Source: an uncultured Lachnospiraceae bacterium (lineage in GTDB: Bacteria > Bacillota > Clostridia > UBA1381). From it: a stretch of 64,000 bases of DNA. Position 1 is the first letter of the stretch. Each line of letters begins with the position of its first letter. Below, piece after piece: positions 6,706 to 59,872 of this stretch. The translations under genes were made by a program, and so were the position numbers. Below the pieces are notes generated by a model that saw only the letters and a program-made list of their open reading frames with translations, was not told where the DNA came from and searched no databases. The DNA is taken from positions 880 to 64,879 of the forward strand of contig CAYMBZ010000003.1 in NCBI GenBank assembly GCA_964388835.1, given 5' to 3'.

Positions 6706-8934
6706 TTAATCAATCCGTTTTTTTCTGTAATCGGCAGGTGTCATGCCGGTGACCGACTTAAATACTCTGTGAAACGTCTGCTTATTTGTAAAACCGACCA
6801 TTTCAAGGATTTGCTCAATTGTAAGTTCGGTGGTTTCCAAAAGGTCTTTTGCTCGGTCGATACGCAGATTATTCAAAAGCTGTTTAAAGGAATAGTCCGT
6901 ATTGCTCTGAATAAGCCTTGTAACGGTGCTCTGGCTTGTGCCGAACATATCCGCGAGCTGTTTTAAAGACATATCCTGTGAAGAACAGTTAGCCTTTATG
7001 TATGCGTATAGCTTGTCAAAATCCGTTACCGTTCGCTCGGAGGAGGTCAGGTAATCTACCAGCTCTTCGATATATGAGCGAACGCCGGATAAGGGCTGTG
7101 CGAGAAATTTATTGGCTATTTCAAAGTCAAGCATATCCTCCATGTATGGTATCTTATTAATCCGCATGTATTTCAATATTGTATTTAATATATAATTGTA
7201 CATTCTCTTTGTATCGCGCGGCGAAAGTGTCGGCTTATCGCTTAAAATATCATTTATTGCCGCCAAAATCGTATCTTTATCCAGTGTGGAAAGTGCGGAA
7301 TAAACGGTAGTTTCATCGGTTATTGTAAAGATAAAGGAGTCCTTGGAGCTGATATCTATAACCGGTGTTTCGTTAGGAGTATGATACGGAATAAATGAGT
7401 CCAGAGCCTCGGCGTGGGCTTGCTTCAGCCCCGGAATTCCGCGATATGCCTTACTCATTCCGATTGAAACCGTAATGTATTCAAAATCATTTGTAAGAAA
7501 GTACATAATGGAATTCAATACATCTTTTATCTCCTCATGCTGTTTTTCGTCCTTAAAATTCAGTATTATATTAAGCACATTGTTTTCCGCAGGGAGAACA
7601 TATGTTCTGAATTTTTCGGTAAACATATCGCACACAACGTTATAAAATCCCGATTTAATGGTTATGTATGATTGATTATCGAATTTATCATAAAAATTCG
7701 GTGCGGGAGACAATTGCAAAATGACGATGGAGAAAAGGTCGTATTCGAAAGAAAACGAGCCTTCAATTGCGTCAAAATCGGAATCTTTATTGTAAATTTC
7801 AAGGTCATTCAGTACATTTATAAGATATTTCTGCTGTGCATACGGCAGTGATTTTTGCAGTAAATCAATTTGAGATTTTGCTTTTTGCGCCAGTGATACA
7901 TTGTCATAAAGCATGTTTGAAGCAATGCTGTCCTCGCCCTTTAGCGAAGAATATATTTCGCTTATGGGCTTGAAAATGTTTTTTGTATTTCTGAAAGCTA
8001 TAAAAACGGCGCTGGATATCGCGATTATGCAAACTGCGATAATCAAAACGATAAAAAGCAAGATATCCTTGTAAATTTCCGAGGTGGGCGTTAATGCAAC
8101 ATATGTATATCCCAAAAGAGAGCGATTTGCGGTGCCGGTGGATACCAAGTAGCGGTCACGTGCCAAAACGGTTTTAAAGTTGGAATTAGGGCGTGACAGT
8201 ACGGTGTTGGCAAAATTATCCGATTGAGTTATTTTTGTGTCGTTATCATTGTTTAAGGAAAAGAATTCCTCAGTAAAATTGTTAAGTATAAAGTATTGCG
8301 TAGAATTGTTGTAATTGTAGTTGTTGAGCGAAATGATTGTAGTTAAATCCACGTTCAAAACGAAGTAACGCTTTTGATTTACCTTGTACACAATCGGAAT
8401 TGTGTTGTAAGTTTTATCGCCCGCATGCATTGCACATGGGGAGAGCATACGGAAGTTGTTGTTGGTGTAAATATACAACGATTGCCAGTAGTTTGCGTCG
8501 TAGGCGGAATATGTTAAATCATCGGAAAAATACTCCGGAATCGGAACACTGCCGCCGGAATGGTACACCACCCCGTTTGTTTGGTCAAGAAGAAATGTGG
8601 TTATAACATGGGGTGTTTCCGCAGAAAACTGTGCAAGTGAAGCAAAAAAATCCGGAGATTGGATTACGTCGTTGCCCTCTATAAACCTATCCGTTATAGG
8701 TTGGTGAACGTAAAATTTAACGGTACTTTTTAACATATCAATATTGTTTTCACAGTATGCGGATGCCGATTGCATATTTGAAACTGTGTTTTTGTTTGTT
8801 ATTGCAGTAAGTTTTGAAAATGAGGAAAAGCAAACATATACCGAAACAATACTGACGATTATTGCGGGTATCAATATTGACATAAGCAAAAAACTGAAAG
8901 TTTCATTCTTTTGTTTTTGTTTGAAAAATCTCAT
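6706..8934 (-). CDS. transmembrane one-component regulator with C-terminal AraC-type HTH (742 aa), locus 1
   Basis: Hydrophobic segment near residues 13-36 (FSFLLMSILIPAIIVSIVSVYVCF), then roughly 250 aa of predicted extracytoplasmic region. A second hydrophobic segment follows (LLFIVLIIAVCIIAISSAVFIAF), then a cytoplasmic region ending in an AraC double HTH (LKQLADMFGTSQSTVTRLIQ ... MVGFTNKQTFHRVFKSVTGMTPADYRK). No receiver or kinase motifs were seen. Confidence 0.8.
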   Translation of the reverse strand: MRFFKQKQKNETFSFLLMSILIPAIIVSIVSVYVCFSSFSKLTAITNKNTVSNMQSASAYCENNIDMLKSTVKFYVHQPITDRFIEGNDVIQSPDFFASLAQFSAETPHVITTFLLDQTNGVVYHSGGSVPIPEYFSDDLTYSAYDANYWQSLYIYTNNNFRMLSPCAMHAGDKTYNTIPIVYKVNQKRYFVLNVDLTTIISLNNYNYNNSTQYFILNNFTEEFFSLNNDNDTKITQSDNFANTVLSRPNSNFKTVLARDRYLVSTGTANRSLLGYTYVALTPTSEIYKDILLFIVLIIAVCIIAISSAVFIAFRNTKNIFKPISEIYSSLKGEDSIASNMLYDNVSLAQKAKSQIDLLQKSLPYAQQKYLINVLNDLEIYNKDSDFDAIEGSFSFEYDLFSIVILQLSPAPNFYDKFDNQSYITIKSGFYNVVCDMFTEKFRTYVLPAENNVLNIILNFKDEKQHEEIKDVLNSIMYFLTNDFEYITVSIGMSKAYRGIPGLKQAHAEALDSFIPYHTPNETPVIDISSKDSFIFTITDETTVYSALSTLDKDTILAAINDILSDKPTLSPRDTKRMYNYILNTILKYMRINKIPYMEDMLDFEIANKFLAQPLSGVRSYIEELVDYLTSSERTVTDFDKLYAYIKANCSSQDMSLKQLADMFGTSQSTVTRLIQSNTDYSFKQLLNNLRIDRAKDLLETTELTIEQILEMVGFTNKQTFHRVFKSVTGMTPADYRKKRID

Positions 8935-8959
8935 GATTTTTCTCTCCTTTTGGTATTTT

Positions 8960-9238
8960 TTGTTACTTTTTCGCCTATTTTTTTTTTTTTTTTGAAAAAA
9001 TTGTTACTCGTTGGTGAAAATTGCGAAGCTGGAAATTTTTATATCCACAAGAAATATTTTATAATAAAAAATGAAATTTGTCAACTTTTAAATCATTTTA
9101 AAAAGAAAAATATTGTTATTTTATGCAGATTCTACGGGCGTGATCACGCATTTATGCGATTTTCGTGCGGGTGTGTGAATAAAATGATACTCATGAAAAT
9201 TTTGTTACTTTACACATTAGATATGAGTGTGATATAGT
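8960..9238 (+). promoter_or_regulatory. locus 1 control region: four TTGTTA[CT]T direct repeats plus a candidate promoter
   Basis: TTGTTACT occurs at 8960, 9001 and 9202, and TTGTTATT at 9113. The last repeat abuts TTTACA (9209-9214), followed by an 18-nt spacer and TATAGT (9233-9238), about 60 nt upstream of the SBP start. Confidence 0.4.
8978..8993. repeat. T16 homopolymer in the divergent promoter region of locus 1
   Basis: Sixteen uninterrupted T residues counted directly, 44-59 nt upstream of the regulator start codon on the opposite strand. Confidence 0.95.
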
Positions 9239-9300
9239 TGAAAATGTAAAAAAACACTGTGCGGCGCTACGCACAAAGTCATAATAAGGAGAGCGAGTAT

Positions 9301-10704
9301 ATGAAAAAAAATTTAATGAAAACAATCGCTATGCTTCTGGGAGCTTCAATGGTTCTCGGAGGACTTGTAGGATGCGGAGAAAAGAAACAGCAAACGGACG
9401 GAAAGGTTACGATTTCACTTGCGGATTACTTTTCAGATCCGAAAATCAATCCTGAGGGATATGAAGCGCAAATGGAGGGTGTTAAAAGATTTAATGAAAT
9501 TTATCCGGATATCGTAATCGAGGACGGAAAATATTCTTTTGCCACAGATACATATATGGCAAAAGCTGAAGCGGGAACACTTCCGACCGTATATTACGTA
9601 CCGCTTACCGAGTGCGAGAAAATTAAGGATTTGGGATATGCGGCGGACCTTACAAAGTATTTTGAGGAAAACGGTTTTAAGGAAAACTTGAATGATTTGG
9701 CGCTTGACATAATTTCAAGAGACGGAAAAATGTATTTTGTTCCGGAGCAATTCTATTATGTGGGACTTTTCGTAAACATCGACCTTTATAAAAAGGCGGG
9801 CTTTGTGGCAGAGGACGGAACACTTTATCAGCCGACCGATTGGGAGGACCTTGCAAGAGTTGCAAAGGAAGTTAAGGCAAAAACCGGAGCTGACGGATAT
9901 GCAATGCCTACAAAAGGCAATCAAGGAGGCTGGAGATTTACACCGGTTGCATGGAGCTACGGAACCGTTTTTGAGGAAAAGAACAAGGACGGAAAATGGG
10001 AAGCTAAATTTGATACCGAAGAATGTGTAAACGCGGTTCAGTTTATAAGCGATCTTAAATGGAAGCACGATGCAATTCCGGCAAACACTTTGCTTGAAAA
10101 TGCGGACATATATCAGCAGTTTGCAGCCGGCAACATTGTAATGACGATGGGTGAATCAAGTATGATAGATAGAATGGTTTCGACATATGGTATGAGCAAA
10201 GATAACCTGGGCGTTTTGAGAATTCCGGCAGGTCCGGAGCGTGATGTATCGCTTCTCGGCGGTGCTGTACGCGTAATCGACAGAAACGCAACACCTGAGC
10301 AGATTGATGCGGCACTTAAATGGCTTGAATTCAACGGATATACATATAAAGTTGATGATGAAACCAAACAAAGTATTGAATCGGACTATCAAGTCAAAGA
10401 AAGTCAGAATCTTCCGATAGGTATCAGAGCTATGAGCCCGTGGAAGGACGGCAGTGAGTATGAGTTGTTCCATGACGAAATGATGGCAAAATATCAAAAT
10501 GTAAGCGATAAGAATGTTGAGAACTACAACAATACCGATAAGCTTGAGTTCCAGGTTGAGGAAGCGGTTGAAGCTCAATCGCTTTACAAAACATTTGACA
10601 ATGTTATTCAGGAATGCTTGACAAATAAGGATGCGGATATAAAGGCACTTGTTTCAAAGGCTGCTTCAGATTTCCAGAGTAATTATCTTGATTTTGCAGA
10701 ATAA
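9301..10704 (+). CDS. extracellular solute-binding lipoprotein of a carbohydrate ABC transporter (family 1 SBP)
   Basis: ATG at 9301 follows AAGGAGAG. The signal peptide carries the lipobox LVGC (MKKNLMKTIAMLLGASMVLGGLVGC). It has typical SBP length and is a paralog of 37941-39329. The track's earlier start at 9259 lacks an RBS. Confidence 0.85.
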   Translation: MKKNLMKTIAMLLGASMVLGGLVGCGEKKQQTDGKVTISLADYFSDPKINPEGYEAQMEGVKRFNEIYPDIVIEDGKYSFATDTYMAKAEAGTLPTVYYVPLTECEKIKDLGYAADLTKYFEENGFKENLNDLALDIISRDGKMYFVPEQFYYVGLFVNIDLYKKAGFVAEDGTLYQPTDWEDLARVAKEVKAKTGADGYAMPTKGNQGGWRFTPVAWSYGTVFEEKNKDGKWEAKFDTEECVNAVQFISDLKWKHDAIPANTLLENADIYQQFAAGNIVMTMGESSMIDRMVSTYGMSKDNLGVLRIPAGPERDVSLLGGAVRVIDRNATPEQIDAALKWLEFNGYTYKVDDETKQSIESDYQVKESQNLPIGIRAMSPWKDGSEYELFHDEMMAKYQNVSDKNVENYNNTDKLEFQVEEAVEAQSLYKTFDNVIQECLTNKDADIKALVSKAASDFQSNYLDFAE

Positions 10705-10718
10705 GGGGCATATATTTA

Positions 10719-11633
10719 ATGAAAACAACAATAAAAAAGAAGAAAAAAAGGGGAGTATCCTTCTTTTTAAAAGACCTGAGCGGATGGATGCTGATGCTTC
10801 CGTCGATAGTATTGGTAGTAATGTTTGTGGTACGTCCGCAAATTTTGGGAGTTATCTGGTCAACATTTAATATGAGAGGGTTTACCGTACAGGATTTCAT
10901 TGGACTTAGGAATTTTCAAATAATACTGAGCAACGCGGATTTCTTGAAAACCTTTACAAACACATGGTTGTACTTGATTTATTCCTTGATTGTAGGTCTT
11001 TTGCCGCCGTTTGTAATGGCTATCATTATGAACGAAATGGCATGTTTCAGAAAAACAATCAGAACGCTTGTATATCTTCCCGGAATAATGCCGGCGATAT
11101 CGGTATCGATTCTTTGGTCGTTTGTTTATTACCCGGATGCCACAGGACTCTTAAATATGGTATTGGGAATGTTCGGAATGGAGCCGTATGTATGGCTCCA
11201 GGACGGACGCTTCACAATTCTGTGGATTATCGTAAGTATGACATGGACGGGAATGGGCGGAACGGCGATATACTATTTTGCGGGACTTCAGGGCGTAAAT
11301 TCAGAGCTGTATGAAGCGGCAATGATGGATGGCGCGGGATTTATAAGACGACTCAGAACCGTTACAATTCCGCACATGTTGCCGATGTTTATGCTTTTTG
11401 CCGTAAGACAGTGCGTGGGCGTTTTCCAGGTAGTAAATCAACCGCTTCAAATGACGGGCGGCGGACCGAACAATGCTTCAATGTCATTGGGACTTTTGGC
11501 ATACAACTATGCTTTTGTGAACGGCAAGCCGCAGTTTGCCATGGCGCTTAACGTAATCACTTTCTTTGTTATTATAATATTTACTCTGATATATTATAAG
11601 GTTGATAAAAAGGTTACGCAGGATTTAATATAG
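10719..11633 (+). CDS. carbohydrate ABC transporter permease (MalF/LplB-like)
   Basis: Six hydrophobic segments and the EAA loop ELYEAAMMDGAGFIRRLRTVTIP. Confidence 0.9.
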   Translation: MKTTIKKKKKRGVSFFLKDLSGWMLMLPSIVLVVMFVVRPQILGVIWSTFNMRGFTVQDFIGLRNFQIILSNADFLKTFTNTWLYLIYSLIVGLLPPFVMAIIMNEMACFRKTIRTLVYLPGIMPAISVSILWSFVYYPDATGLLNMVLGMFGMEPYVWLQDGRFTILWIIVSMTWTGMGGTAIYYFAGLQGVNSELYEAAMMDGAGFIRRLRTVTIPHMLPMFMLFAVRQCVGVFQVVNQPLQMTGGGPNNASMSLGLLAYNYAFVNGKPQFAMALNVITFFVIIIFTLIYYKVDKKVTQDLI

Positions 11634-11655
11634 CAGAGAGGAGCGAGGACAAGGA

Positions 11656-12540
11656 ATGAAAAAAATTGATTTTGCGTCAAAAGTTCATTACGGCGCTATA
11701 CGGCCTATTGATATGAAAAGCACAAAATACAAGGTTACATACGGAATACTTTCGCTGATAATGTTGCTGTATCTTGTAATAGTATTTCTGCCTGTTGTAT
11801 GGATGATGCTTTTCGGATTTAAAGATACGACCGAAATTTATGCGAGAGTTCAGACGTTTTTGCCGAAAGAGATAAAGCTTTCGAAAATGGGCGAAGTTTG
11901 GAATCAGCTGGAGCTTTACAGATATTATTTAAACACCTTTATAATGGCAATCGGAAATGTTTTGATGGATGTTGTTGTTTGCGGGCTTGCGGGCTACAGT
12001 CTATCACGCTTAAAACCGAGAGGACACGCGATTTATATGACGGCGGTAACAACGCTTATGCTTGTTCCGGCAACATGTGCCATGGTGCCAAACTACATTT
12101 TCTTTAAAGATATGGGCTTGCTTGACACCTATATACCGATGTGGCTTTTGATGGGAACAAATATGTTTGATATTCTCCTGTTTAAGTCAACCTTTGACGG
12201 TATATCCAAATCACTGATTGAGGCGGCAAAGATTGACGGTGCATCCGACCTTAGGATTTTCGTTAAAATTGTAGTACCGCTTTCAGTGCCGGTAATATGC
12301 ACCTGTGCGATATTTACATTTAATAACAGTATAGGTGATTTCTTCTGGCCCTACCTTATTATACAGGATGCGGCAAAAGTGCCGCTGGGCGTAAGAATGT
12401 TTGAAATCAGCAAATCAACTTTATCTATCGATAAGCAGATGATTGCTCTGATTTTCTCAATAATACCGCAGATGGTAGTGTTCATTCTGTTCCAGAAGCA
12501 GATTATGGGCGGAATAAACCTCGGCGGAGTTAAAGGATGA
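11656..12540 (+). CDS. carbohydrate ABC transporter permease (MalG/LplC-like)
   Basis: Multi-pass membrane protein with the EAA loop IEAAKIDGASDLRIFVKIVVP. Confidence 0.9.
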   Translation: MKKIDFASKVHYGAIRPIDMKSTKYKVTYGILSLIMLLYLVIVFLPVVWMMLFGFKDTTEIYARVQTFLPKEIKLSKMGEVWNQLELYRYYLNTFIMAIGNVLMDVVVCGLAGYSLSRLKPRGHAIYMTAVTTLMLVPATCAMVPNYIFFKDMGLLDTYIPMWLLMGTNMFDILLFKSTFDGISKSLIEAAKIDGASDLRIFVKIVVPLSVPVICTCAIFTFNNSIGDFFWPYLIIQDAAKVPLGVRMFEISKSTLSIDKQMIALIFSIIPQMVVFILFQKQIMGGINLGGVKG

Positions 12541-12553
12541 TAGGAGGAAGAAT

Positions 12554-15500
12554 ATGAAACGTGCACTAACTTTTATACTTGCGCTTTCCATGCTCCTGCA
12601 GTTCGGAAGCACGGCGATGGCGGCAAGAAAAACCGTTAAGGACGGTGAGCTTGAATATACCGTTTTGTGGGAGGAAGATTTTGATTCGGGCAAAAAGGGT
12701 CAGGATCCGTTCTCTTCATCAAACGGGGTTACGATAGAAGAGCATGATGTTGAGCATGGTAACAGTGTAAAGGTTGTCATTGAAGACAATATGTGGCCGA
12801 GATTCAGAAAACATTTTGATGAACCTGTAAAGGACGGTATTCTGTATGTTGGCTACAATATATTCAGAACAAATAAGGGCAGAACCAGTGACGATTACCT
12901 TGAATATCACGATTCAAGATGGGGTAACGGAATGTTTATCGGAACTCTTTTTAATAATGATGAGGGAAAAATCACATGGTATGCGGACATGCATATAGAT
13001 GCAATCAAAATTCCCGCTCCGGGAAACACTGTGCCGCAGACAAACGTGTGGCACAGAGTGGAGAGCTGGATTGACCTGAGTAACAGAAAAGCTACATATT
13101 ATATTGACGGTGAGTTTTTGGGTGAGACCACAATAACCGATGAGTGTACTCAGATATCCTCATATGAGAGAGGATATGAGGGAGGCTACGGAACCGGAAT
13201 AGAGTATGTAGACGATTACAAAATTCTTCACTTTGATGAAATAGGAAGAGAAGTGGACTTGGACTTTGTAATGGCAACTCCGGAATATCTTGAAGCTCCT
13301 GCGCTTTTGGAGGCTGATGCTGATGTTTTGGGTTACAGTTTTTACGATAAAAAGAACACAATCAATGTTGATGTAACCAACTTGACCACAAAGCAGGCTG
13401 ACGGAACGGTTTATCTTGACATAACGGATGAACGCGGAAATAAAGTGTTCTCGCAAGGCAAGAAAACGTCAATCCCGGCAAAGGAGAAAAAGAGTGAAGC
13501 GTTCACATTTTCTTTTAGAGAATACGGAAGCTATAATGTAAAGATGAGATTTGAAATGGAGGGGCGAAAGACAAGCCGTGCGGAAACAACCTTTATGTTT
13601 ATAAAAAAGGCTCCGCCGAATGAAACGCTGGGATATTCCGCTCATACCTATTGGGGCTACGGAACAGCAGAGCTTGAAAGAAAACAGCAGGTTCTGAAAA
13701 ATGCCGGATTCACATTTGAGCGAAGCGAAATTTTCTGGGTTTACTACGTAATGGCAGGATATAAGATGGATGCCGTTCAGCAGAACATCTTGGATATCCA
13801 GGAGAAAAACGGAATGAAGCCGCTTGTTCTTCTTGCCGGTTGGGGCGGAATGAGCGACCTTACCGAGGGTGAGGTTCCGCTTTCGGATAAATCACGAGAA
13901 AACTTCAGAAAATATGTATCGGGTGTAGCCAATGACCTTAAGGGCAAAGTTAAATACTATGAAGTGTTTAACGAAACTCATTTTACCTCAAACCCCGAAG
14001 CATACGTTTTGGCACAAAAGACAGCATACGAAGCAATTAAGGAAGCAGACCCGGAGGCACAGGTTCTCTGCGGAGCGACGGCGCATGTACCGGAAGATTG
14101 GATAGAAATGCTTCTTGAAAACGGCGCGGGCGAATATTTTGACGCATTCTCTGTACACCCGTACACAATTGAAAACTTCCCGGAAACGGGCGGAAGATAC
14201 GGCAGTGCGGAATACATGGTATTGCAGTGTAGAAAACTGCTTGACAAATACGGACTTCAGGATAAGGGAATTGTTATCACCGAGCTTTCATATACTGCGG
14301 CACCGTCTTATGCAACCGAAACTCAGCAGGGTGCTTTCGGCTTAAGACAGTATATGATGGTTCAGCCCCATGTTGAAAGCTTCACATGGTACAACGACCA
14401 GAACAAAACCGCGGCAGGCTCTGACGTTGTTGAGGCAAACTTCGGACTTATGCGTTCGTGGGCAGGTGACGGAATCGCGTATCAGGCAAAGCCGGCACTC
14501 CTTGCATGGGCAGGATTTAACAGCGTATTGGCAGGAGCGGAGCCTTTGGGTAAGGTTGAAGCAAGGGATGAAAATGTTTGGATTTACAAATTTAAAACCG
14601 AAGCCGGTAAGGACGTTATAGCGGTTTGGAATTCGGACAATCTCCAAAAGAGCGTTGCATTAAAGCTCGGCGCGGAAAGCGTAAATATGTACGACATGTA
14701 CGGAAATGCAACTACGATTTACTCAAATAACGGTGTTATTAATCTGGATATTTCCGAAAACATTACATATTTGGAGGGCAATTTCTCCGAGATTACCCAG
14801 GTTGACAACGAATTTTCCGTAAGGGAGAATTCAGTCGGTTTAATACGCGGTGAAGAATTTACGCTTCGTATCGACAAGCTCCCGGCGGGCGATGTGGAAA
14901 TTAAGGTAGATTTGCCGGATAACATCTTATTAAAGGCTATAGAAAACAATGAAATTGTTTTGGAATCGGGCGCTGAGGGATGTGAGAGCGAGAAGATAAG
15001 AGTAAATGCAATTGTGGGCGGTAAAAAGGTATATGCTCATGAGGTGGCGGTTGAATATATCGACCCGGTAACCTATAATTGCGATGTTCTCCCGTATAAC
15101 ACTCGCAGGTATCAAGCGGTTTTGGAAATTACCAACGAAAGAAATACGAATGTTTCGGCAGAGTTGGTACTGACAGAGCCGGAGAGTGTTGCCGGAAAGA
15201 GTTATAAAATCAAAACCATCACTTCGGGCGATACAAGAACGCTGAGAATTAATATTACACCGGAAGAAGCTTCGGAAAATGTTTTAAGACTCAGAGGAGA
15301 GATAAATGTAAAAGGTATTGCCGGAGAAGAAGTGGTTAATGTAAAAGTTGACAAAAATGTCGGTTGTTTGAAGTATGACCCGAAGAAGAAACCCGAGATT
15401 GACGGAGTGATTTCATCGGGTGAATGGGATACTTTCTTGCCGATGAGAATTAACAACAGCAGTATGGCTCAGCAAAAGGCGTGGAGAGGCATGGATGACC

Positions 15501-18180: not shown

Positions 18181-18226
18181 TTCTGAAATACTACAATGTG
18201 ACTCTTAAAATGAGGTGGACAAATTA

Positions 18227-20542: not shown

Positions 20543-20547
20543 GAATT

Positions 20548-30313: not shown

Positions 30314-30344
30314 TGTGCAAAACGGAGTGATTCCGTTTTGCACA
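30314..30344 (+). terminator. perfect 12-bp hairpin between the surface-protein genes and the cytoplasmic hydrolase gene
   Basis: TGTGCAAAACGG (30314-30325) pairs with CCGTTTTGCACA (30333-30344). There is no immediate T tract (CTGCTTATTT). Confidence 0.4.
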
Positions 30345-31994: not shown

Positions 31995-31998
31995 TTTT

Positions 31999-32073
31999 GG
32001 TGAGGCGTTAGAACGATTGCAATCGGAATTGAAGCACAAGCCGGTTAAGGGAATAGGTATAAAAGAAAAATAA
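31999..32073 (+). repeat. 75-nt gene-tail relic, copy B (GEALERLQSELKHKPVKGIGIKEK*)
   Basis: Matches 6034-6108. It begins 5 nt after the GH78-like stop, in a different frame, and TGA at 31978-31980 closes that frame upstream. Confidence 0.8.
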
Positions 32074-32085
32074 GCATCATAAATG

Positions 32086-32138
32086 AGCCTGAGAACGTAT
32101 TAAAAAGCAATTGCTTTTGAGCGCTCTCGGCTTTTTTT
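32086..32138 (+). terminator. compound hairpin terminator ending the locus 1 operon
   Basis: An outer imperfect stem, AGCC(T)GAGA with TCTCGGCT, encloses the palindrome AAAAGCAATTGCTTTT and is followed by T7 (32132-32138). Confidence 0.6.
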
Positions 32139-37798: not shown

Positions 37799-37801
37799 TA
37801 G

Positions 37802-37899
37802 AAATGAGATAACTTCAAAAATTGGTAGTTAAAATTTCAAAAGAAATGAGAGAAAGTAAAAAAATGAGAATTTACAAAAGAAAAAGCGTGTGTCATAAT
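37802..37899 (+). promoter_or_regulatory. locus 2 control region: three AAATGAGA direct repeats plus a candidate promoter
   Basis: AAATGAGA occurs at 37802, 37844 and 37862. The last repeat abuts TTTACA (37871-37876), followed by a 17-nt spacer ending in TGT and then CATAAT (37894-37899). Confidence 0.4.
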
Positions 37900-39329: not shown

Positions 39330-39358
39330 TTAAAATTCATCGAAAGTAAGGAAATAAA

Positions 39359-40279: not shown

Positions 40280-40294
40280 GGAGGTACGCGAAAA

Positions 40295-50700: not shown

Positions 50701-51172
50701 CTACATGATGGCGGATATTGTCGATGATGTTCACATGAACGATTGGGACGGACGTTCAACCTACCTGGGTGACAGCTTACAGGTCGGCGTATATTACGGA
50801 AACCAAGGCTACATCGTTGCGGGACAGGGAGCAACCACTTTCCACCAGCTGACAATCGCACAGACGAACAGCGGCGCGGCGGAAGCCTACAGACACTTAT
50901 CTCAGGATGATTTCTGGAATGGCGAGGGCTATTGGGAAAACTACGAATGTGCCATCACCCGCAAGGGAAATCATACCTATTATGAATTCAAAATCCCGTG
51001 GTCAAGCTTGCTGAAAACGGGTCAGAACCCGGTTGAGGGAAACTCACTCGGATTTTCCGCAATGGTAAACGATAATGACGGAACAGGCCGCCGCGGCTGG
51101 CTGGAATACGCAAGCGGAATAGGCGAAACAAAGGATACATCGCTGTTTACTGCGATAAAACTAATTAAATAG
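47780..51172 (+). CDS. secreted clan GH-A-like hydrolase with C-terminal CBM9-like domain (1130 aa)
   Basis: Signal peptide. Motifs are YFEIWNEPDV, FSGHPY and IEVWDSECGLT. The C-terminus (about 50520-51172) reads TIDGIIEKGEWAEKS...WDEDNFYMMADIVDD...GDSLQVGV...MVNDNDGTGRRGWLEY. Confidence 0.7.
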   Translation: MIKNRIIKYLLVLVLAIQSMYIPTLAEAAVPTNIAEAEFSVSPKLTNIQSAVMGDSETAVTATYDGRACWVMDVLKGNASRYINLSFKEDFVSDVTAEYNFEIDYFDYGTGYFAYYYDSLESDNRFGQMFYLENQRKWRTVEFTINNADFHKGIDGKYDFRLTIKAPFSHTQTTSSSSVAISRIKVTRVTGKNPVYVTADIDESGNSFPWFSEEKVIHNHFTNRTDEALELNVKYLALSDEDQRILFDKTEQLTIGVGETVDKDLDISEYDQCNLYDYKVYITNDKVSSEFEPLEFCIIKTDPNGIKNRNVYIGTHTWQRENYKEAVSVMSKTNIGGMRVDVPWWHVESTANGAGNYKIWGTTVGNLIEELLANNIHVLPLLSSQSFVYARNHSIFPSTEAQLNAYRKYMKFIGEEFAKKGVEYFEIWNEPDVHNGVILDDGVTEMGGASYMPVYNIAQEEIKRANPNAKVMGAATCWASTSDVFLQQAIDAGWAKTIDVFSGHPYYRTADEKSVAAQSVIKWKEKIAEAGGPQDIEVWDSECGLTTADSSVATDKNQANWMTRKCIYMRSMDAGDVIGLFTFEQRGIVAYDREDMYGNARPYNADQLFNCKPYTPKISLLEIAAQCYVMADSEPTGIFDKDENVRIYKYKSNKFGKDIISLYSVDTEDVVTLKLDAKQLDYYDEFGNMETVYSDDGVYTFTVDERPMYLVGDFCDPEVVEDRFNYSQYVINSSKNDFAEIGVTVPSDEYTVEADGGNGLEIVSTSDVVSKRAVIRVGVTLDKDKQSYVTVRVKKDGKVVQKSQIKIVSNEVVVSKLSATLADKSNLNRWHGEMTVENASQTRAAKGYVKFTYPESFAELKKIDIGIIPKGTTGKIKFSLPEIVEKGEYNVNYDIVLENGETVSSSTKLDFTMATYAENKPTIDGIIEKGEWAEKSAMYINKESQYKSLIKTEPWRGVNDLNGRFVVEWDEDNFYMMADIVDDVHMNDWDGRSTYLGDSLQVGVYYGNQGYIVAGQGATTFHQLTIAQTNSGAAEAYRHLSQDDFWNGEGYWENYECAITRKGNHTYYEFKIPWSSLLKTGQNPVEGNSLGFSAMVNDNDGTGRRGWLEYASGIGETKDTSLFTAIKLIK

Positions 51173-53580: not shown

Positions 53581-53835
53581 TTCGGTAATTTAAGCGCTTC
53601 TGCGCCGAGGAATACGGCATGCTCTTACAGCCGCCCTCCCAACGGAAATTGTTGACGGGATTTTCGGTAAGAGAGGCGGCGCGCAAAGCCTTTGCTCGGT
53701 GCGTGTGCGTGACAGTAGCATATGCACCGCAAAAAGAGAGTTGCGCCTGACTTTGGCGGCGTAAGGATTTGCCTATATACAAGTCACAGAAACGTTAAAT
53801 TAAATATAAATGTAAAAAATAAAGGAGCGAGAAAA

Positions 53836-56800
53836 TTGAAAAAGCAAAATTTTAAAAAATTATTGTGCGCACTCTTGAGTGCATCGCTTATGGCTTCCGG
53901 TATGACAGCATTTGCAAGTAACGGCAGCTCACGATACACCTTGTCTGCATTTCAAACCTTTGGCGACTATGTAAAAGAGGATGACAGTGCTGTTTATCCG
54001 GACGGCTGGGCAAAATGGGTACAGGGCAGCGGTGCCGTAAACCTGCGCGGAAAAACAGAAATCACCACAGGCTCAAACGCAATGTATGTTCTTACTAATG
54101 CTATTCCGAGATTTAATTTCGATACACTGGTTCAAGAGGGTATTGCCCACATCGGTTTTGATATGAAGCTTGAAGAGGGTGCCGGTGTAAGAATCATGGG
54201 TTCGACCGACTTTACAGGCTCTAAGAATCCGAACTCTGTTTATCATGACAGCCACGAACTAGTTGTACAGAACTATTACCTTGATTTGAATTACGCAATA
54301 GGTGGTAAGGTGACACTTTTTACCGGTGATGCCGGAATACAAGTATGGTCTACCGAAACTGTAGATGAATCCGATACTGCCTGGCACAGATATGATTTGA
54401 TAATCGATATGGAGCATGGAACATATACACCATATATCGATGGCGCGAAAATAGTGAAGAGTCAAACGGTTGCAGGAGAAGATGATGAGGGTAACTCAAT
54501 ATATGAGTATACATATTATGAAAATCTGAAATCCAACTATAACCTGAAAAATATCTACTTCCAGACAACAGGCGGCAACATTTGGTTGGATAACTTCACC
54601 GCGGAGAACTATGCAACACCGGCAGAGGGCGTTTTGGCGGCACCGCAGGTAAAGGCAGATTTCAACAACGGTAAGGTTGACATTGCGTATTCCGAAGCTG
54701 TTAATTTGTCAAGCGTTGCGGCAAGCAGTGTCAGCGCAACCAATGTGGAGACAGGTAATACGGTATCTGCAACAGCATTTACAAAAACAGCTACCGGCGC
54801 GGTAATCGACTTTGGTGATTTGCCAAACGGCACATACTATGTAAATCTTCCGAGAGTTTCGGGCAAAATCAGCGGTAAGACGGCAGTTGGCAATCCTGCT
54901 TTCTCTGTTGTAAAAACAATCAATGCAAATGAAAAAGAGCTTGTTTTGATTGATGAGGATTTTGCGGACTATACCGGCGAGGGCGCTCCGACAGGTTGGG
55001 CAACATTGACAACCGGTACATATGACAAAGCAACCCTCACGCAGGGCACAAAGGGCAACGGCGAAAAGACATTCGTAATGTCCGGCAATGGTGCAGGTTC
55101 ATATTACTATAACTTTGACGGCGGCTATGCGCTCCATGGTGAAAACTTCACTGTTGAATTTGACGTAAACAGCGCAAACGCAGGCTGGGGAATCGGTATT
55201 ATGCGTGATTCCGATATGAATACCTATAAGTATTCAACAATGGACAGATACAACGGAACATTCGGCAATACGGACTATAGTGTTATCGCAGGCAGATATC
55301 AGAAAGTAAACAATATGTTTGCCGGTGTATATGAGTATTTGAATTCAGAAGATACTAGTGAAGAAAATAGTGTAAAGGGAACATTTGTAACTCAAAATAA
55401 TGTATATAACCTTTGGACTTTGGCGAAAACGTCCAATTCAGCTAACAAAGCAACAGAATATGACTACGGCACATGGGCACACTTTAAGCTCAACATCAAC
55501 CCACAGGCGGGTAAGGTAGACGTATATAAAGACGGAGAATTTGTTGTACAAAACACCTATCCGGTAAATATGTTTGCCGGAGTAAAGCAGACAGATGATG
55601 AAAACAAGAACCCAACTTATTCAGACGGTATCGCCGGTATCAGACTTCATAAGGAAGCGGGCTGCAGTTCGGTAGCTTTTGCAAATATAAAGGTTTCAAA
55701 GGATAATTCTTATCTTACATATCAGGATTTTGAGGGTAGAGTAACTGCAAATGAGAACTCTGTAGGCTGGATTGCCGGAGCATACATTGGTTGGTATCAG
55801 GACGGTGTTAAAAAAGGTGGTGTATACGAGGGTCAGGATCAAACAAAAACACAATTTAAAACCACAGCCGGTAAAAACAGTAATACAGCACTTGAAATAT
55901 ACAGTATGAAGGGGGCTGAACGTTGGGAAGCGGTAAAGACTATACTGAATAAGCCGGTTACAAAAGGAAAAGGATTTGTTATAGAATTTGACGCAAAGAA
56001 GAGTACAGGCAACGGCTGGTTTATGGGTGCTGCAACTACGGCAGGTGCTACAGTAGGAACTGTAACCGGCACTTTGCTGCAGATTAAAAATGACGGTAAA
56101 GTTCAATTCGGAACAGGATATGATAGTAACTACACACAACCGGGCTACGGTGACGATTATGGAACGGAAAAAAACCCGGTAACAATAGGTGACGGAGTTT
56201 GGTATCACTACAAGTATATAATAAATCCGAATACAGCTGATGACGGAAACAAGACAACAAGATATTTGCAGATAACAGATGAAAGTGGTAATACACAGGA
56301 ATTATACGCGAATGTACGGAATGACAATGTTGCAAACAGATTGAGAAATGAAAATACAGTTGCAATCGAATTTATGGCTAACTGGACACCTGCGGGAGTT
56401 CCGTTTGCAATCGACAACCTCAAGGTATGGGAAATCGAGCCGGACGATGCGACAGGTAAAGAACCTACAAACAAGAGCGTATACATGCAGTACGCAAAGG
56501 CAGTAAGCTATGACGGCAGTGAAGAGTTCTTTGAAACAGATCTTGATAAGTTGAAAGATACAAAGGAATTGGTATTCAAGTTCTCAGACAAGCTGACAGA
56601 GGATGCAAAATCAAAAATCAGCGTTAAGGTTAACGAAGCAGAAATAGGAACAAAGACAATAGACGGCGACAAGCTCATCGTCTCACTTGCGGGAGTTGTT
56701 ATTCCGGAAAATAAATCTGTAAAAATCAAGGTTGAAAGCGGAATTGCGTGCGAAGGTGGCGTTACTGAAGATAGCCATTCATACGATATAAGTTCACACA

Positions 56801-57189
56801 GCAGTTCGGGTCTTGTGATAAATTCAATCGACCTTTATGAAAATGTTGCGCCTACAGCACTGGATATGACAAAGGGAATTACCGCTAATGCGGATGTTCT
56901 TGTAAAGAATATTGCAAGGATTACGGGAAAACCGGTATTCATCATCAAGGGTTACAACACAGGTGAGGCAACAACAGCATTGGTAGCCGATGCAAATTAC
57001 AACGTTGTAAACAGCGGCAGTGAAGTTAAGGCTATAAAAAAAGAGGACAAGACGGTAGCCGCAGGCTCTGCATTTGAATGGAGACTGGATGCATCAGACG
57101 TTATTAACGCCGACGGAAACCAGATTAAGGCTTTCGTTTGGGATGCGGCTCAAAAAGCTTTGATTGAAAATTACATGAGCACTAAATAA
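53836..57189 (+). CDS. secreted non-catalytic protein with three ConA/LamG-like modules, Ig-like domains and a C-terminal KAFVW module (about 1117 aa)
   Basis: TTG at 53836 follows AAAGGAGCGAG and gives the signal peptide (M)KKQNFKKLLCALLSASLMASGMTAFA. The track's 53722 start adds 38 aa without an RBS. Core strands are AWHRYDLIIDMEHGTYTPYIDG, TWAHFKLNINPQAGKVDVYKDG and VWYHYKYIINP. Confidence 0.6.
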   Translation: MKKQNFKKLLCALLSASLMASGMTAFASNGSSRYTLSAFQTFGDYVKEDDSAVYPDGWAKWVQGSGAVNLRGKTEITTGSNAMYVLTNAIPRFNFDTLVQEGIAHIGFDMKLEEGAGVRIMGSTDFTGSKNPNSVYHDSHELVVQNYYLDLNYAIGGKVTLFTGDAGIQVWSTETVDESDTAWHRYDLIIDMEHGTYTPYIDGAKIVKSQTVAGEDDEGNSIYEYTYYENLKSNYNLKNIYFQTTGGNIWLDNFTAENYATPAEGVLAAPQVKADFNNGKVDIAYSEAVNLSSVAASSVSATNVETGNTVSATAFTKTATGAVIDFGDLPNGTYYVNLPRVSGKISGKTAVGNPAFSVVKTINANEKELVLIDEDFADYTGEGAPTGWATLTTGTYDKATLTQGTKGNGEKTFVMSGNGAGSYYYNFDGGYALHGENFTVEFDVNSANAGWGIGIMRDSDMNTYKYSTMDRYNGTFGNTDYSVIAGRYQKVNNMFAGVYEYLNSEDTSEENSVKGTFVTQNNVYNLWTLAKTSNSANKATEYDYGTWAHFKLNINPQAGKVDVYKDGEFVVQNTYPVNMFAGVKQTDDENKNPTYSDGIAGIRLHKEAGCSSVAFANIKVSKDNSYLTYQDFEGRVTANENSVGWIAGAYIGWYQDGVKKGGVYEGQDQTKTQFKTTAGKNSNTALEIYSMKGAERWEAVKTILNKPVTKGKGFVIEFDAKKSTGNGWFMGAATTAGATVGTVTGTLLQIKNDGKVQFGTGYDSNYTQPGYGDDYGTEKNPVTIGDGVWYHYKYIINPNTADDGNKTTRYLQITDESGNTQELYANVRNDNVANRLRNENTVAIEFMANWTPAGVPFAIDNLKVWEIEPDDATGKEPTNKSVYMQYAKAVSYDGSEEFFETDLDKLKDTKELVFKFSDKLTEDAKSKISVKVNEAEIGTKTIDGDKLIVSLAGVVIPENKSVKIKVESGIACEGGVTEDSHSYDISSHSSSGLVINSIDLYENVAPTALDMTKGITANADVLVKNIARITGKPVFIIKGYNTGEATTALVADANYNVVNSGSEVKAIKKEDKTVAAGSAFEWRLDASDVINADGNQIKAFVWDAAQKALIENYMSTK

Positions 57190-57203
57190 AGAAGCTTTTC
57201 ACG

Positions 57204-57242
57204 TATCGGGCGGCGAAATAAACGCCGCCCGATAAGTGTTTT
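57204..57242 (+). terminator. GC-rich hairpin (terminator or attenuator) before the cytoplasmic enzyme genes of locus 2
   Basis: Perfect 12-bp stem TATCGGGCGGCG (57204-57215) with CGCCGCCCGATA (57223-57234), followed by AGTGTTTT. Confidence 0.5.
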
Positions 57243-57252
57243 GGAGGAAGTT

Positions 57253-59262
57253 ATGAAAAATATAAATTCAACAGCAAAAATTTATGTTGATTGTGTAAAC
57301 GGAAACGAATGGTATTCCGGAATTTCAACGGATATTCACAGCGATTCCGGTCCGGTTAAGACCATTGAAACCGCCCTCGCGCGTGTGCGTGAGCTGAGAG
57401 TGGGAAGATGTGACCATCCTGTTACTATTTCAATTATGGGCGGCGAATATTTTTTGGATAAGGAAATAAATATCGGACGCATGATGAGCGATATTACAAT
57501 CGAGGGTCATGGCGACAAAAAAGCCGTTATCCGCGGTGCAAAAAAAATCGAGGGCTTTTATGAAGCTGAGATGTGCGGCGTAAAATGCCTTGCGGCAAAA
57601 ATTCCGGAGGGAGTTATTCCGTCCGACCTTTTTGTAAACGGCAAGCGTGCGGTTCTGCCGCGTTTCCCGGAAGAGGGATTTTTGTACCCGATAGAGTCCG
57701 AGTCAAAAACCAAGGCATTGCATGACCGCGCAGAGTGGTTTATTGCGGAAAAGGGCGTTTTTGATAACCTTTCGCATCCCGAGGAGGTTTCGGTAAATTT
57801 CAACCACTACTGGGTGGACGAGCATGCCGGCATTGAATCCTACGACAGTGAAACCGGCAAGGTTACCATGACAAAAACCACGGCGTTTACAATTTATTCA
57901 AGTATTAAGGGTTCGGAAAATATCGGCAACAGCAATGCTGAGTACAGCACAATGGAATATTACCTTGAAAATGTGCGAGAAATGTTCAAAAAAACCAATC
58001 AGTATTTTATCGATATCGAGACAAACACGCTGTATTATATTCCGGAAAATGACGGCGAGTTTGAAGCATACATGCCGACGGTTAAAGCAATGTTCAATGT
58101 TGAGGCGGATAATGTTTGCTTCAGAAATCTTACATTTGAATACTCTTCAAGTGAGTATGAAAGCAGTATGGTTGACGAGCGCACCGGCAAGGGACTTGCA
58201 TGCGATAGTCAAGCGGTCTGCGGCGCAAATGCGCTTATTAACTTCAAAAACAGCGCAAATTGCCGCGTTGAGGATTGTGAGCTTTTGCACTATGGTCTCT
58301 ATGGCGTGCAAATCGGCTTGGGAAGCCACCGCGTACGTGTTTGCGGCAATGTTTTTGACGATTGCGGCGCCGGCGGTGTAAAAATAGAGGGCGGCAACAA
58401 CCCGGATTTCGACGGAGATGAAACCTACGGAAATACGGTAAACGATAACAAAATCACAAACTGCGGCATAAAATTCGAAGCCGGTTGCGGTGTGTTGATT
58501 ATGCACAGCTATGAAAACGTTATATCTCATAATGAGATTGCTTATACGTATTATACGGGAATTTCCTGCGGCTGGGTTTGGGGCTATGTATTCAGCAAGT
58601 CGCATGACAATATTATTGAGAAAAATCATATCCACCATATCGGTCAGGGACATTTGTCGGATATGGGCGGTATTTATATACTGGGTGCACAGAAAGGCAC
58701 TGTTTTGCGCGGTAATCTTATTCATGATACACGTTGCAGATACTACGGCGGTCAGGCGATTTATTTGGACGAGGGCGCATCCTATGTTACTGTGGAAAAC
58801 AACATCTGCTATAACGTTGATGCGGGTTCACTTCAACAGCATTTCGGATTCATGAATATTGTAAAAAACAATATTTTTGATGCCGGAGAGCATGGCTGTA
58901 CGCTTCACTGGTTGCAGGAAATGCATACCGGATTCGTGTCGGAGCGCAATATTCTCTTTACAAGAAACAGTTTGCCGGTTTACGGCTCATCGGGCGAGGA
59001 TGTTCTGGCGGATTGCTTCTGCTCGGATTATAATTTGATTTACGCATTCGATGACGAGGAACCGATTTTCTACAGACAGTACGGATTAGAAAAGCACAAG
59101 GCGGATGCCGAGGCGGAACATGAGCTGGATAAGCACAGCATTATCGCTGACCCGCTGTTTGTGGATGCGGAAAATCATGATTACAGACTTAAGGAAAATT
59201 CACCGGCATATGAAATCGGTTTTGTGGATATCGACATGAGCGATGTCGGCGTAAGAAAATAA
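57253..59262 (+). CDS. cytoplasmic right-handed parallel beta-helix protein (polysaccharide lyase or hydrolase fold), 669 aa
   Basis: ATG at 57253 follows GGAGGA. No signal peptide. Periodic beta-helix turns are visible (CGAGGVKIEGGN, NKITNCGIKFEAGCGVLIMHSYENVISHNEI, NLIHDTRCRYYGGQAIYLDEGASYVTVENNICYN). Confidence 0.6.
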   Translation: MKNINSTAKIYVDCVNGNEWYSGISTDIHSDSGPVKTIETALARVRELRVGRCDHPVTISIMGGEYFLDKEINIGRMMSDITIEGHGDKKAVIRGAKKIEGFYEAEMCGVKCLAAKIPEGVIPSDLFVNGKRAVLPRFPEEGFLYPIESESKTKALHDRAEWFIAEKGVFDNLSHPEEVSVNFNHYWVDEHAGIESYDSETGKVTMTKTTAFTIYSSIKGSENIGNSNAEYSTMEYYLENVREMFKKTNQYFIDIETNTLYYIPENDGEFEAYMPTVKAMFNVEADNVCFRNLTFEYSSSEYESSMVDERTGKGLACDSQAVCGANALINFKNSANCRVEDCELLHYGLYGVQIGLGSHRVRVCGNVFDDCGAGGVKIEGGNNPDFDGDETYGNTVNDNKITNCGIKFEAGCGVLIMHSYENVISHNEIAYTYYTGISCGWVWGYVFSKSHDNIIEKNHIHHIGQGHLSDMGGIYILGAQKGTVLRGNLIHDTRCRYYGGQAIYLDEGASYVTVENNICYNVDAGSLQQHFGFMNIVKNNIFDAGEHGCTLHWLQEMHTGFVSERNILFTRNSLPVYGSSGEDVLADCFCSDYNLIYAFDDEEPIFYRQYGLEKHKADAEAEHELDKHSIIADPLFVDAENHDYRLKENSPAYEIGFVDIDMSDVGVRK

Positions 59263-59278
59263 AACGGAGGAAAAGAAA

Positions 59279-59872
59279 ATGGCAGTTTTGGAAAAGTACG
59301 AATGGACGGATATCTGGTGGGATGAACCGACTGAGGATGGCAAGCGTGTACTTATGCTCGGCGATTCCATTACAAGAGGCATGAAAGAGTTCGTTAAGGA
59401 AAATGTCGGCGATGTTTTCATCGATATGCTGGCAACTTCAAGAAGCGTGGACAATCCGAATTTTATGCGTGAGCTGAAATACATGGTTGAGCAGAGCAAG
59501 TATGATTTGATTTGTGTAAGCCATGGATTGCACGGCTTCCACCTGGAAATCGACGGTTATGAAAAGGGTATGACGGAGTGTTTTGAGTATTTGAAAAATC
59601 AAAATACAAAGATTGCCGTTGAAACCTTGACACCGGTTACAATGCCGGGCGGCGGATATAACGACCACACCGAAAGGGGACCGATTGTTCACGAAAGAAA
59701 CGAAGTGCTTAAAAAATTGGCGGAAAAGTTTGAATTCCCGATTATAGATTCTTACGGACTTGTAGAGGGCAAGGCAGAAATTCGTCATATCGACGGTGTT
59801 CACTACAATCAGGACGGATATAAGTTTTTGGGCGACTTCCTGGCTAAAAATATTCTGGAAAAGCTGGGCTGA
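59279..59872 (+). CDS. SGNH/GDSL-family hydrolase (probable carbohydrate esterase), cytoplasmic
   Basis: Block I reads VLMLGDSITRG and block V reads DGVHYN (DxxH). 197 aa, no signal peptide. Confidence 0.7.
   Translation: MAVLEKYEWTDIWWDEPTEDGKRVLMLGDSITRGMKEFVKENVGDVFIDMLATSRSVDNPNFMRELKYMVEQSKYDLICVSHGLHGFHLEIDGYEKGMTECFEYLKNQNTKIAVETLTPVTMPGGGYNDHTERGPIVHERNEVLKKLAEKFEFPIIDSYGLVEGKAEIRHIDGVHYNQDGYKFLGDFLAKNILEKLG

Follow-up and report, generated by a model that had tools for sequence, protein, structure and literature searches.

Two adjacent loci in an uncultured Clostridia bacterium, probably Gram-positive polysaccharide utilization loci of one ancient family

Surface glycan capture in Gram-positive gut anaerobes is far less understood than the Sus paradigm of Bacteroidetes. 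Here we ask what is encoded by two large gene clusters that lie side by side in an uncultured member of the Clostridia, on a stretch of 64,000 nucleotides (nt) of contig CAYMBZ010000003.1 (assembly GCA_964388835.1), hereafter called the window. Locus 1 (genes g01 to g14) occupies positions 6706-35284 and locus 2 (genes h01 to h12) positions 35375-59872, and both encode an importer, secreted enzymes and proteins with surface-layer homology (SLH) domains. We consider it likely that these are two adjacent catabolic Gram-positive polysaccharide utilization loci (gpPULs) of one ancient locus family.

Two loci with a common parts list

An open reading frame (ORF) map, Pfam scans and BLASTP among the proteins of the window placed the genes in two co-directional runs on the + strand (9259-35284 and 37941-59872). 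Upstream of each run lies a divergent AraC-type regulator gene on the - strand, at 6706-8934 (g01) and 35375-37633 (h01). Both loci contain an AraC regulator with two transmembrane segments, a lipoprotein solute-binding protein (SBP), two permeases, two GH39-like enzymes of glycoside hydrolase (GH) clan GH-A, one of which has a tail of carbohydrate-binding module (CBM) type CBM9, LamG-like multi-module proteins, one protein with C-terminal SLH domains (C-SLH) and one or two giants with N-terminal SLH domains (N-SLH). The cytoplasmic enzymes are not common to the two: GH78 and GH106-like in locus 1 versus GH141-like and GDSL in locus 2. The order of the parts differs between the loci, confirming the first-pass annotation, which had been made from the sequence alone and had described two side-by-side loci with the same parts list in permuted order. 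The cassette, of 10-13 genes, is conserved, and the surface block consists of 6-7 secreted proteins of 540-1155 amino acids (aa). All proposed surface proteins have signal-peptide-like N-termini and g13, g14, h11 and h12 have none, in agreement with the earlier description of trimming enzymes without signal peptides; these calls, like those of transmembrane segments, come from a hydrophobicity heuristic.

A gpPUL has been defined as the combination of an enzyme that degrades polysaccharides, a system for transporting carbohydrates and a regulator of transcription (PMC5320581), and both loci hold all three, with predicted GH-like enzymes, an SBP with two permeases and AraC regulators. The earlier remark that this is not a textbook Gram-positive PUL is therefore right in that the variant is unusual, though formally the published definition covers it. 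SusC and SusD gave no Pfam hits among the window proteins, so the loci are not PULs of the Bacteroidetes type. The gpPULs of Roseburia and Eubacterium rectale are similar in that they carry a regulator, often of AraC type, an ATP-binding cassette (ABC) importer and GHs, are substrate-specific and occur several per genome (PMC5320581). They differ from the window loci in two respects: the surface block described here is very large and belongs almost entirely to unclassified families, and a pair of non-catalytic SLH proteins is not a described feature of those gpPULs.

If the loci are catabolic, a two-transmembrane AraC-type one-component sensor would switch on a long operon, and GH39-like clan GH-A enzymes together with LamG-like binding proteins would depolymerise the glycan on the wall side, beside a dedicated C-SLH/N-SLH pair that would bind the secondary cell-wall polymer. 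The lipoprotein SBP and the two permeases would then import oligosaccharides, and cytoplasmic exo-enzymes would finish the degradation, GH78 and the GH106-like enzyme for locus 1 and the GH141-like enzyme and SGNH esterase for locus 2. We infer the surface location of the anchorless proteins and their cooperation with the SLH pair.

Several points weigh against such a catabolic system at the wall. None of the four GH-A proteins sits cleanly in a curated family, their whole-protein Pfam scores lying below cut-off, and NCBIfam holds no family for ten large window proteins, the GH-A proteins included. The LamG-like identity of the putative binding proteins is weak, and Foldseek or PDB profile searches gave no recognisable fold relative for what lies outside the SLH domains in either SLH family. 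SLH binding needs a secondary cell-wall polymer pyruvylated by way of csaB, and genes for this pyruvylation are not in the 64-kb window. GH78, GH106 and GH141 are found in PULs for several glycans. Lastly, secretion may leave the enzymes free in the medium.

The relationship between the two loci was assessed by in-window BLASTP. Paralogs between the loci are 22-55% identical overall: 30% for the regulators (g01-h01), 43% for the SBPs (g02-h02), 55% and 52% for the permeases (g03-h03 and g04-h04), 25% for the GH-A/CBM9 pair (g05-h08), 31% for the C-SLH pair (g10-h05) and 24-26% for the N-SLH giants g11 and g12 against h06. Homology with considerable divergence, as noted by eye in the first pass, is thus borne out, and the permease peptides quoted there exist (residues 245-276 of g03 and 247-278 of h03). 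Some genes resemble a neighbour in their own locus more than any counterpart in the other, namely g11-g12 (33%), g06-g07 (43% over 260 aa) and h09-h10, and the GH-A proteins g08 and h07 are each about equidistant from all other GH-A paralogs and form no clean reciprocal pair. By sequence comparison, the parts list is common, yet a one-to-one partner is absent for some genes. Within the window, the expectation that paired genes would be each other's closest homologs accordingly fails for g08-h07 and for the LamG-like genes, which pair within the loci (g06 with g07, h09 with h10).

Both gene orders recur in other assemblies. The locus-2 order (SBP, permease, permease, C-SLH, N-SLH, GH-A, GH-A/CBM9, Big_5, LamG-like protein of ~1100 aa and an optional beta-helix) is found in L083, on a 264-kb Hadza gut contig (with L082), in L084, and partly in L090 and L018, while L085, L086 and L170, an independent assembly, show the locus-1 order. 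All genes of L083 and L084 match h genes best and all genes of L085 and L086 match g genes best, including those for regulator, SBP and permeases. Orthologs of g01 in L085 and L086 are 39-45% identical, those of h02-h04 in L083 and L084 are 55-67% identical, and orthologs of h08 and h06 elsewhere are 30-83% identical, compared with ~25% for their in-window paralogs. In neighbour-joining trees the window genes group with their positional orthologs with 96-100% bootstrap, and the LamG genes were duplicated within each locus type. Because the best hits run gene for gene and the orthogroups are supported at this level, we regard the loci as two ancient locus types and not as the outcome of a local duplication; on these comparisons they are old, widespread types that co-evolved as units and are adjacent here by happenstance. 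The old duplication proposed in the first pass is therefore upheld as to the age of the split and revised as to its place. Two diverged types in one genome make a natural pair for substrate specialisation.

Secreted enzymes and LamG-like proteins

The four secreted clan GH-A enzymes are encoded on the + strand by g05 (12554-16003; GH39/GH5-like, with a C-terminal CBM9-like module) and g08 (20548-23477, including an ORF listed as 'g09'; with an N-terminal LamG-like region and a C-terminal immunoglobulin (Ig)-like module) in locus 1, and by h07 (45527-47767; with the same C-terminal Ig-like module) and h08 (47780-51172; GH39-like, with a CBM9 tail) in locus 2. Among these proteins, structure modelling covers h08. 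Its AlphaFold2 (AF2) model (pLDDT 86.8, pTM 0.79) consists of two N-terminal beta-sandwiches, a TIM barrel at residues ~320-630, a further beta-sandwich, two Ig-like domains and CBM9. The barrel is a (beta/alpha)8 barrel for which the top Foldseek matches are GH39 and GH2 barrels; the best is a Bacteroides cellulosilyticus GH39 enzyme (5jvk, E 1.5e-23, TM-score 0.78), followed by PslG, also of GH39 (5bx9 and 4zn2, TM-score 0.69-0.72), with 15-16% identity to the GH39 structures.

The clan GH-A signature is an Arg, an Asn-Glu acid/base motif, a His-x-Tyr motif and a nucleophile Glu. In a 21-member alignment of the h08 family, R339, N429-E430, H504-x-Y506 and E542 are invariant, and g05, g08, h07 and h08 all keep the Arg, Asn-Glu, His-Pro-Tyr and nucleophile Glu. 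The supposition that the TIM-barrel regions are glycoside hydrolases has thus held up as far as fold and catalytic residues go. As in the GH39 enzymes 5jvk and PslG, a beta-sandwich follows the (beta/alpha)8 barrel in h08, which also has an NEP acid/base motif and a nucleophile Glu; unlike them, h08 carries extra N-terminal beta-sandwiches, Ig domains and CBM9.

Family assignment is less tidy. With the Pfam GH39 model, h08 scores 24.4 bits as a whole protein (cut-off 26) and 26.6 bits for the catalytic segment alone. The catalytic segment of g05 passes the Pfam GH5 cut-off (28.0 versus 23.5), h07 gives a sub-threshold match to the Glyco_hydro_cc (GH128-type) model, the catalytic segment of g08 matches no Pfam GH family, and one relative, P0030, matches the GH140 'Apiosidase' model. 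On these profiles and conserved residues, the GH-A proteins are real GH-like proteins, not clean members of a curated family, and their activity is a prediction. The CBM9 tails are clear: against a CBM9_1 cut-off of 23.4, g05 reaches 37.4 bits (3e-9) and h08 51.1 bits (1.9e-13), in line with the earlier claim of one CBM9-tailed GH-A enzyme per locus.

Relatives of these enzymes are few. Among 5.8 billion proteins we found 37 homolog clusters for h08 and only 12 for g05. A scan of Joint Genome Institute (JGI) metagenomes with the g05 sequence returned no relatives, and one with the family profile returned one close locus, L090. Among the matches listed in a contig search, the named relatives come from 'Monoglobaceae', 'Oscillospiraceae' and 'Clostridia' metagenome-assembled genomes (MAGs), at 23-32% identity. 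Counting two GH39-like GH-A lineages, the LamG-like superfamily, C-SLH and N-SLH, at least five essentially unannotated families are present, and for the GH-A families clear predictions of catalytic residues can be offered.

The LamG-like proteins are secreted, multi-module and likewise encoded on the + strand: g06 (16080-18128) and g07 (18215-20542), the latter with a Big_5 Ig domain, in locus 1, and h09 (51175-53580), also with Big_5, and h10 (53722-57189) in locus 2. For h10, 21 homolog clusters were found in 1.84e9 representatives. It has no Pfam or PDB match, its relatives give only faint and inconsistent Pfam hits, and PDB sequence and profile searches returned nothing significant for h10 or the LamG superfamily. 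Profile-profile comparison unites the h10 family with the h09/g07/g06 family in a single superfamily (hhalign probability 99.9, E 4.6e-37), whose alignments show a 'FDxK ... WHxY/K ... DNxxV' pattern repeated two or three times per protein and which gives faint Laminin_G and pentraxin hits. A ConA/LamG-type sandwich would fit these repeats and hits, without their being proof of it; the 'ConA/LamG-like' label of the first-pass annotation thus draws on a repeated motif and faint hits, and the profile support is faint or sub-threshold.

A second feature links the secreted proteins. A hidden Markov model (HMM) built from the last 95 residues of g06, g08, h07 and h10 also matches the extreme C-terminus of g07 and of orthologs in other loci. 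This module of ~90 aa is FxLYD/CARDB-like and Ig-type, and the g06 copy reaches the NCBIfam FxLYD-domain cut-off. It is carried by g06, g07, g08, h07 and h10 and, by eye, by h09; since g05 and h08 end in CBM9, each anchorless secreted protein ends in one of two module types. The GH-A proteins have neither SLH nor LPXTG, and no LPXTG motif occurs in the window proteins. The first-pass description of enzyme and lectin proteins without an obvious anchor is therefore accurate, and these proteins end in CBM9 or the shared Ig-like tail.

The SLH pair and its possible roles

SLH domains are limited to five proteins, g10, g11 (by family profile), g12, h05 and h06, and no catalytic domain accompanies them there. 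The C-SLH proteins (~540 aa) are g10 (23484-25127, + strand; Pfam SLH 4e-32, 3 stretches) and h05 (41175-42800, + strand; SLH 5e-36, 3 stretches), in which the signal peptide precedes a small beta domain, a helical region and a Gly-rich linker, and three SLH domains close the chain. The N-terminal part of these proteins has no PDB match, and the PDB hits of h05 are confined to the SLH part. The N-SLH giants (~860-900 aa) are g11 (25140-27710), g12 (27740-30307) and h06 (42816-45515), also on the + strand, in which an SLH triplet precedes ~680-720 aa of all-beta domains of unknown family. The AF2 model of h06 (pLDDT 87) has the SLH triplet at residues 20-166 and then ~720 residues of confident all-beta structure. 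Foldseek matched it only to the SLH triplets of SpaA and Sap (TM-score 0.7-0.8); matches to DDB1 and propellers were discarded (probability <=0.3). Consistently, a profile of the h06 family (38 sequences) aligns with the complete SLH triplets of Sap, SpaA and SbsB and with nothing else. Alignments of both families show a TRAE-like motif with an invariant Arg in the SLH domains. h06 has 65 homolog clusters in 5.8 billion proteins, and an exact-sequence look-up of g11 found no record.

The order 'C-SLH then N-SLH giant' is always adjacent, and the pair stands beside a GH-A/CBM9 gene in 9 independent loci. The N-SLH giant family, its non-SLH part included, also occurs in PULs with other enzymes (L172 and L173). 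L172 (GCA_045589495.1, JAZNPF010000004.1, 3718-22697) encodes an N-SLH giant, an SBP, two permeases, a PL8 lyase, a heparinase-like protein and an SLH/F5_F8-type-C protein. Integrase and recombinase genes immediately precede it, so that the locus may be mobile. L173 has two C-SLH/N-SLH pairs (8363-12703 and 20494-22703) near a WbsX-like protein, GH78, GH94 and an AraC regulator. Placement inside PULs in several copies would argue against a role as the main S-layer. Because the pair recurs with unrelated enzymes, it could be a genomic PUL marker in this clade.

Natural fusions elsewhere join the parts that are separate in the window. P0011 (L087, 10001-15853; 1950 aa) combines an h08-like GH-A and an h10-like LamG protein, P0030 (L088, 196-5376; 1726 aa) combines GH-A, CBM9 and SLH, as do P0034-37, and a protein of L171 (6749-9976; 1075 aa) combines a g07-like LamG part, a g10-like region and SLH. 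CBM9 accompanies SLH in SLH-anchored multimodular glycanases. In Paenibacillus JDR-2, surface depolymerisation is SLH-anchored and is followed by ABC import and intracellular trimming (PMC4765114). The systems of Paenibacillus sp. JDR-2 (Xyn10A1), Caldicellulosiruptor and Thermoanaerobacterium thus resemble the model proposed here, in that depolymerisation occurs at the wall by way of SLH and is finished inside after ABC import (PMC4765114). In JDR-2-type systems, however, the catalytic module, CBMs and SLH triplet are on one polypeptide, whereas the SLH triplets of the window are on separate non-catalytic proteins and single-chain fusions appear only in distant relatives (P0030, P0034-37). 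Within the literature collection that we searched, there was nothing on SLH in Monoglobus, SLH in gpPULs or PDB 9RX2.

What, then, do the SLH proteins do? One possibility, which we think less than probable, is that they themselves capture glycan in the manner of surface glycan-binding proteins (SGBPs), the GH-A and LamG-like proteins being freely secreted without any assembly. Capture proteins of the SGBP type are a standard element of PULs. In the modelled giant, ~700 aa are predicted with confidence to be all-beta and show no enzymatic signature, which would suit such a role, and the pair accompanies varying sets of enzymes, as one might expect of a generic capture module. However, no CBM or lectin family was detected in the SLH proteins, and fusions of LamG and GH-A parts to SLH indicate that binding and enzyme parts themselves can be anchored. 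The divergence of the SLH proteins between loci (24-31% identity) fits a binding or a scaffold role alike.

A second possibility, to which we also give only tentative weight, is a split 'utilisome' or scaffold, in which C-SLH and N-SLH form a wall platform and enzymes and lectins dock onto it through CBM9 or the Ig-like module. This would be a new Gram-positive counterpart of an anchoring scaffoldin or of the Bacteroidetes SusCDEFG complex. It would explain why each secreted protein without SLH ends in one of only two module types and why the SLH pair is always adjacent in the same order; the presence of the giant family in PULs whose enzymes differ (a PL8 and a heparinase-like protein in L172, a WbsX-like protein and GH78 in L173) and the fusions of enzyme, lectin and SLH parts point the same way. 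On the other hand, the protein-protein contacts are hypothetical, the C-terminal module has a generic Ig-like fold and could act as a spacer or bind carbohydrate, and Pfam detects no cohesin- or dockerin-like repeats. Docking and capture are not mutually exclusive.

The comparison with cellulosomes is instructive in this respect. There too, SLH-anchored non-catalytic proteins stand beside secreted enzymes with a common terminal module. Unlike in a cellulosome, importer and regulator are here in the same presumed operon and docking is hypothetical. Cohesin and Dockerin_1 had no hit in 32 proteins (Pfam, E<=0.01), and we therefore reject a cellulosome, as the first-pass annotation had done. A broader proposal is that the SLH pair is a lineage-specific, PUL-defining surface module of uncultured Clostridia, a functional Gram-positive counterpart of SusC/D-SGBP or of an anchoring scaffoldin. 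The anchorless GH39-like enzymes and LamG-like lectins would assemble on it by way of CBM9 or the Ig-like tail, giving a wall-bound 'utilisome' not described before and reused with different enzyme sets. We rate this as somewhat unlikely. If the proteins do assemble, they could represent a new surface architecture.

Substrate, assembly and regulation

The cytoplasmic enzymes offer a lead to the substrate of the two catabolic loci. In locus 1 (+ strand), g13 (30387-31994) is a GH78-type alpha-L-rhamnosidase of short form (Bac_rhamnosid6H 1.6e-15, 57.7 bits versus a cut-off of 24.5; Bac_rhamnosid_C; PDB 3cih, which we take to be BT1001, E 1.6e-45), and g14 (32753-35284) is a GH106-like enzyme that scores 38 bits with Glyco_hydro_106 (cut-off 29) over only profile positions 433-606 of 743, with a weak match to 5mqm; an ortholog fragment of g14 in L087 is 81% identical. 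In locus 2 (+ strand), h11 (57241-59262) is a GH141-like parallel beta-helix enzyme (Beta_helix 9e-16; PDB 5mqp, BT_1002, E 1.2e-16, and 9rx2, E 4e-36) and h12 (59279-59872) a GDSL/SGNH esterase (Lipase_GDSL_2 5e-8). The closest structures for g13 and h11, and weakly for g14, come from the rhamnogalacturonan II (RG-II) PUL of Bacteroides thetaiotaomicron (BT1001 GH78, BT0986 GH106, BT1002 GH141). As in that PUL, an esterase is present; unlike it, the window has no SusC/D and its surface enzymes are unrelated. Because most GH106 and GH141 structures in the PDB come from one study, the match says little about the substrate, and we keep RG-II as a lead only.

Judged by family membership, GH78, GH106, GH141 and an esterase together suggest a rhamnose/fucose-containing, acetylated glycan, again as a lead only. 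The two loci would most likely target different parts or variants of such a heteropolysaccharide, which is possibly acetylated. The positional g07 ortholog in L086 (12604-15966) has an extra CE2_N and GDSL esterase domain, which hints that the target glycan is acetylated. New carbohydrate-active enzyme (CAZyme) families for rhamnose/fucose-rich glycans would serve as enzymatic tools.

Might the loci instead remodel the cell's own surface glycan, such as exopolysaccharide (EPS), wall polymer or S-layer glycan, and not serve feeding? PslG, a GH39 enzyme that processes EPS, is among the best structural matches of h08, and true S-layer proteins are likewise built from an N-terminal SLH triplet and a large beta region. 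We nevertheless find this improbable: an SBP-dependent importer, a sensor-regulator and cytoplasmic exo-glycosidases amount to a catabolic layout, more CAZymes of catabolism (GH31, CE2, CE7, GH3 and GH38) are found in orthologous loci, and no glycosyltransferase, flippase, polymerase or sugar-nucleotide genes occur in 6706-59872. A biosynthetic 'surface glycan' locus was rejected for lack of glycosyltransferase, flippase and polymerase.

Local assembly quality was a concern in g08, where a tandem duplication of 197 nt (22811-23007 and 23008-23204; copies 97% identical), whose length is not a multiple of 3, frameshifts the gene into ORFs of 844 and 151 aa. An intact, single version of 910 aa is present in P0042 and in L170, an independent Logan assembly of SRR17221345, and because of this intact gene the duplication probably arose in MAG assembly or reflects strain variation. 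The ORF at 23022-23477, which had been listed as a separate gene, is thus a fragment of g08 split by the duplication. That the pair of loci as a whole arose by faulty assembly or by recent local duplication in the MAG, as this clear assembly-type artefact might suggest, has a negligible chance of being true and was ruled out by BLASTP identities of only 22-55%, gene-for-gene best hits and neighbour-joining trees that give both locus types separate orthologs in other samples, and by the independent Logan contigs L001 and L170, which reproduce both loci exactly.

The regulator g01 (HTH_18 9.5e-22) has two transmembrane segments around an extracytoplasmic region of ~250 aa and then a C-terminal AraC helix-turn-helix; transmembrane-like segments lie at residues 11 and 284 of g01 and at residues 13 and 297 of h01 (HTH_18 1e-21, GGDEF_2-like). 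The importer genes, on the + strand, are g02-g04 (9259-10704, 10719-11633 and 11656-12540; SBP_bac_1 and two BPD_transp_1 permeases by Pfam) and h02-h04 (37941-41170; lipoprotein SBP and two ABC permeases by Pfam), and g02 has an LVGCG lipobox by eye. Pfam found no ABC ATPase gene in the window, and the ATPase of the importer is presumably encoded elsewhere.

Both loci are presumably operons. Intergenic spacing is 2-86 nt (79 nt after g12), except for 141 nt before h10 and 758 nt between g13 and g14, so the packing of 2-100 nt given earlier is right for most gaps and wrong for these two. ORF starts were set mechanically, and those of h10 and g02 look over-extended, with basic N-terminal extensions before the signal peptide (53722-53833 and 9259-9301). 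Because homologs align from ~residue 40 of h10, its true start is probably downstream, near 53833, and the gap before it would then probably be ~250 nt.

In both loci a hairpin exactly divides the surface/transport block from the cytoplasmic enzymes: one with a 14-bp stem at 30314-30344 (+ strand, directly 3' of g12), found by a consensus scan, and a GC-rich one with a 12-bp stem at 57204-57234 (+ strand, directly 3' of h10). These hairpins may attenuate transcription into the cytoplasmic enzyme genes. A third, terminator-like hairpin at 59885-59914 lies 3' of h12 at the end of locus 2. Promoter and terminator counts in the window were not above shuffled expectation, and we cite only these three long intergenic hairpins; Rfam and tRNA scans of the window found nothing.

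Direct repeats lie immediately upstream of promoter-like hexamers in the two divergent promoter regions, with TGAAAAnnTTGTTACT occurring three times at 8993-9209 and AGAAATGAGAnAA twice at 37800-37866. The differing repeats are candidates for distinct AraC operators and could be chance occurrences in AT-rich DNA.

The 758-nt gap between g13 and g14 (31995-32752) contains no intact gene. An ORF within it (32341-32457) has a sub-threshold Barstar match (E 0.0017, profile positions 1-37 of 96) and may be the remnant of a barstar-like gene that has decayed. At the start of the window, on the - strand, lie two tandem glycyl-radical enzymes related to pyruvate formate-lyase (PFL) (82-4479; 755 and 708 aa, 35% identical), adjoined by a small AraC gene (4626-5417); L005 and L031 contain comparable pairs. 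No glycyl-radical activase was seen in the window, and a link of the pair to deoxy-sugar or diol metabolism is speculation. Downstream of locus 2, an acetyltransferase and TrkH/TrkA are encoded on the opposite strand.

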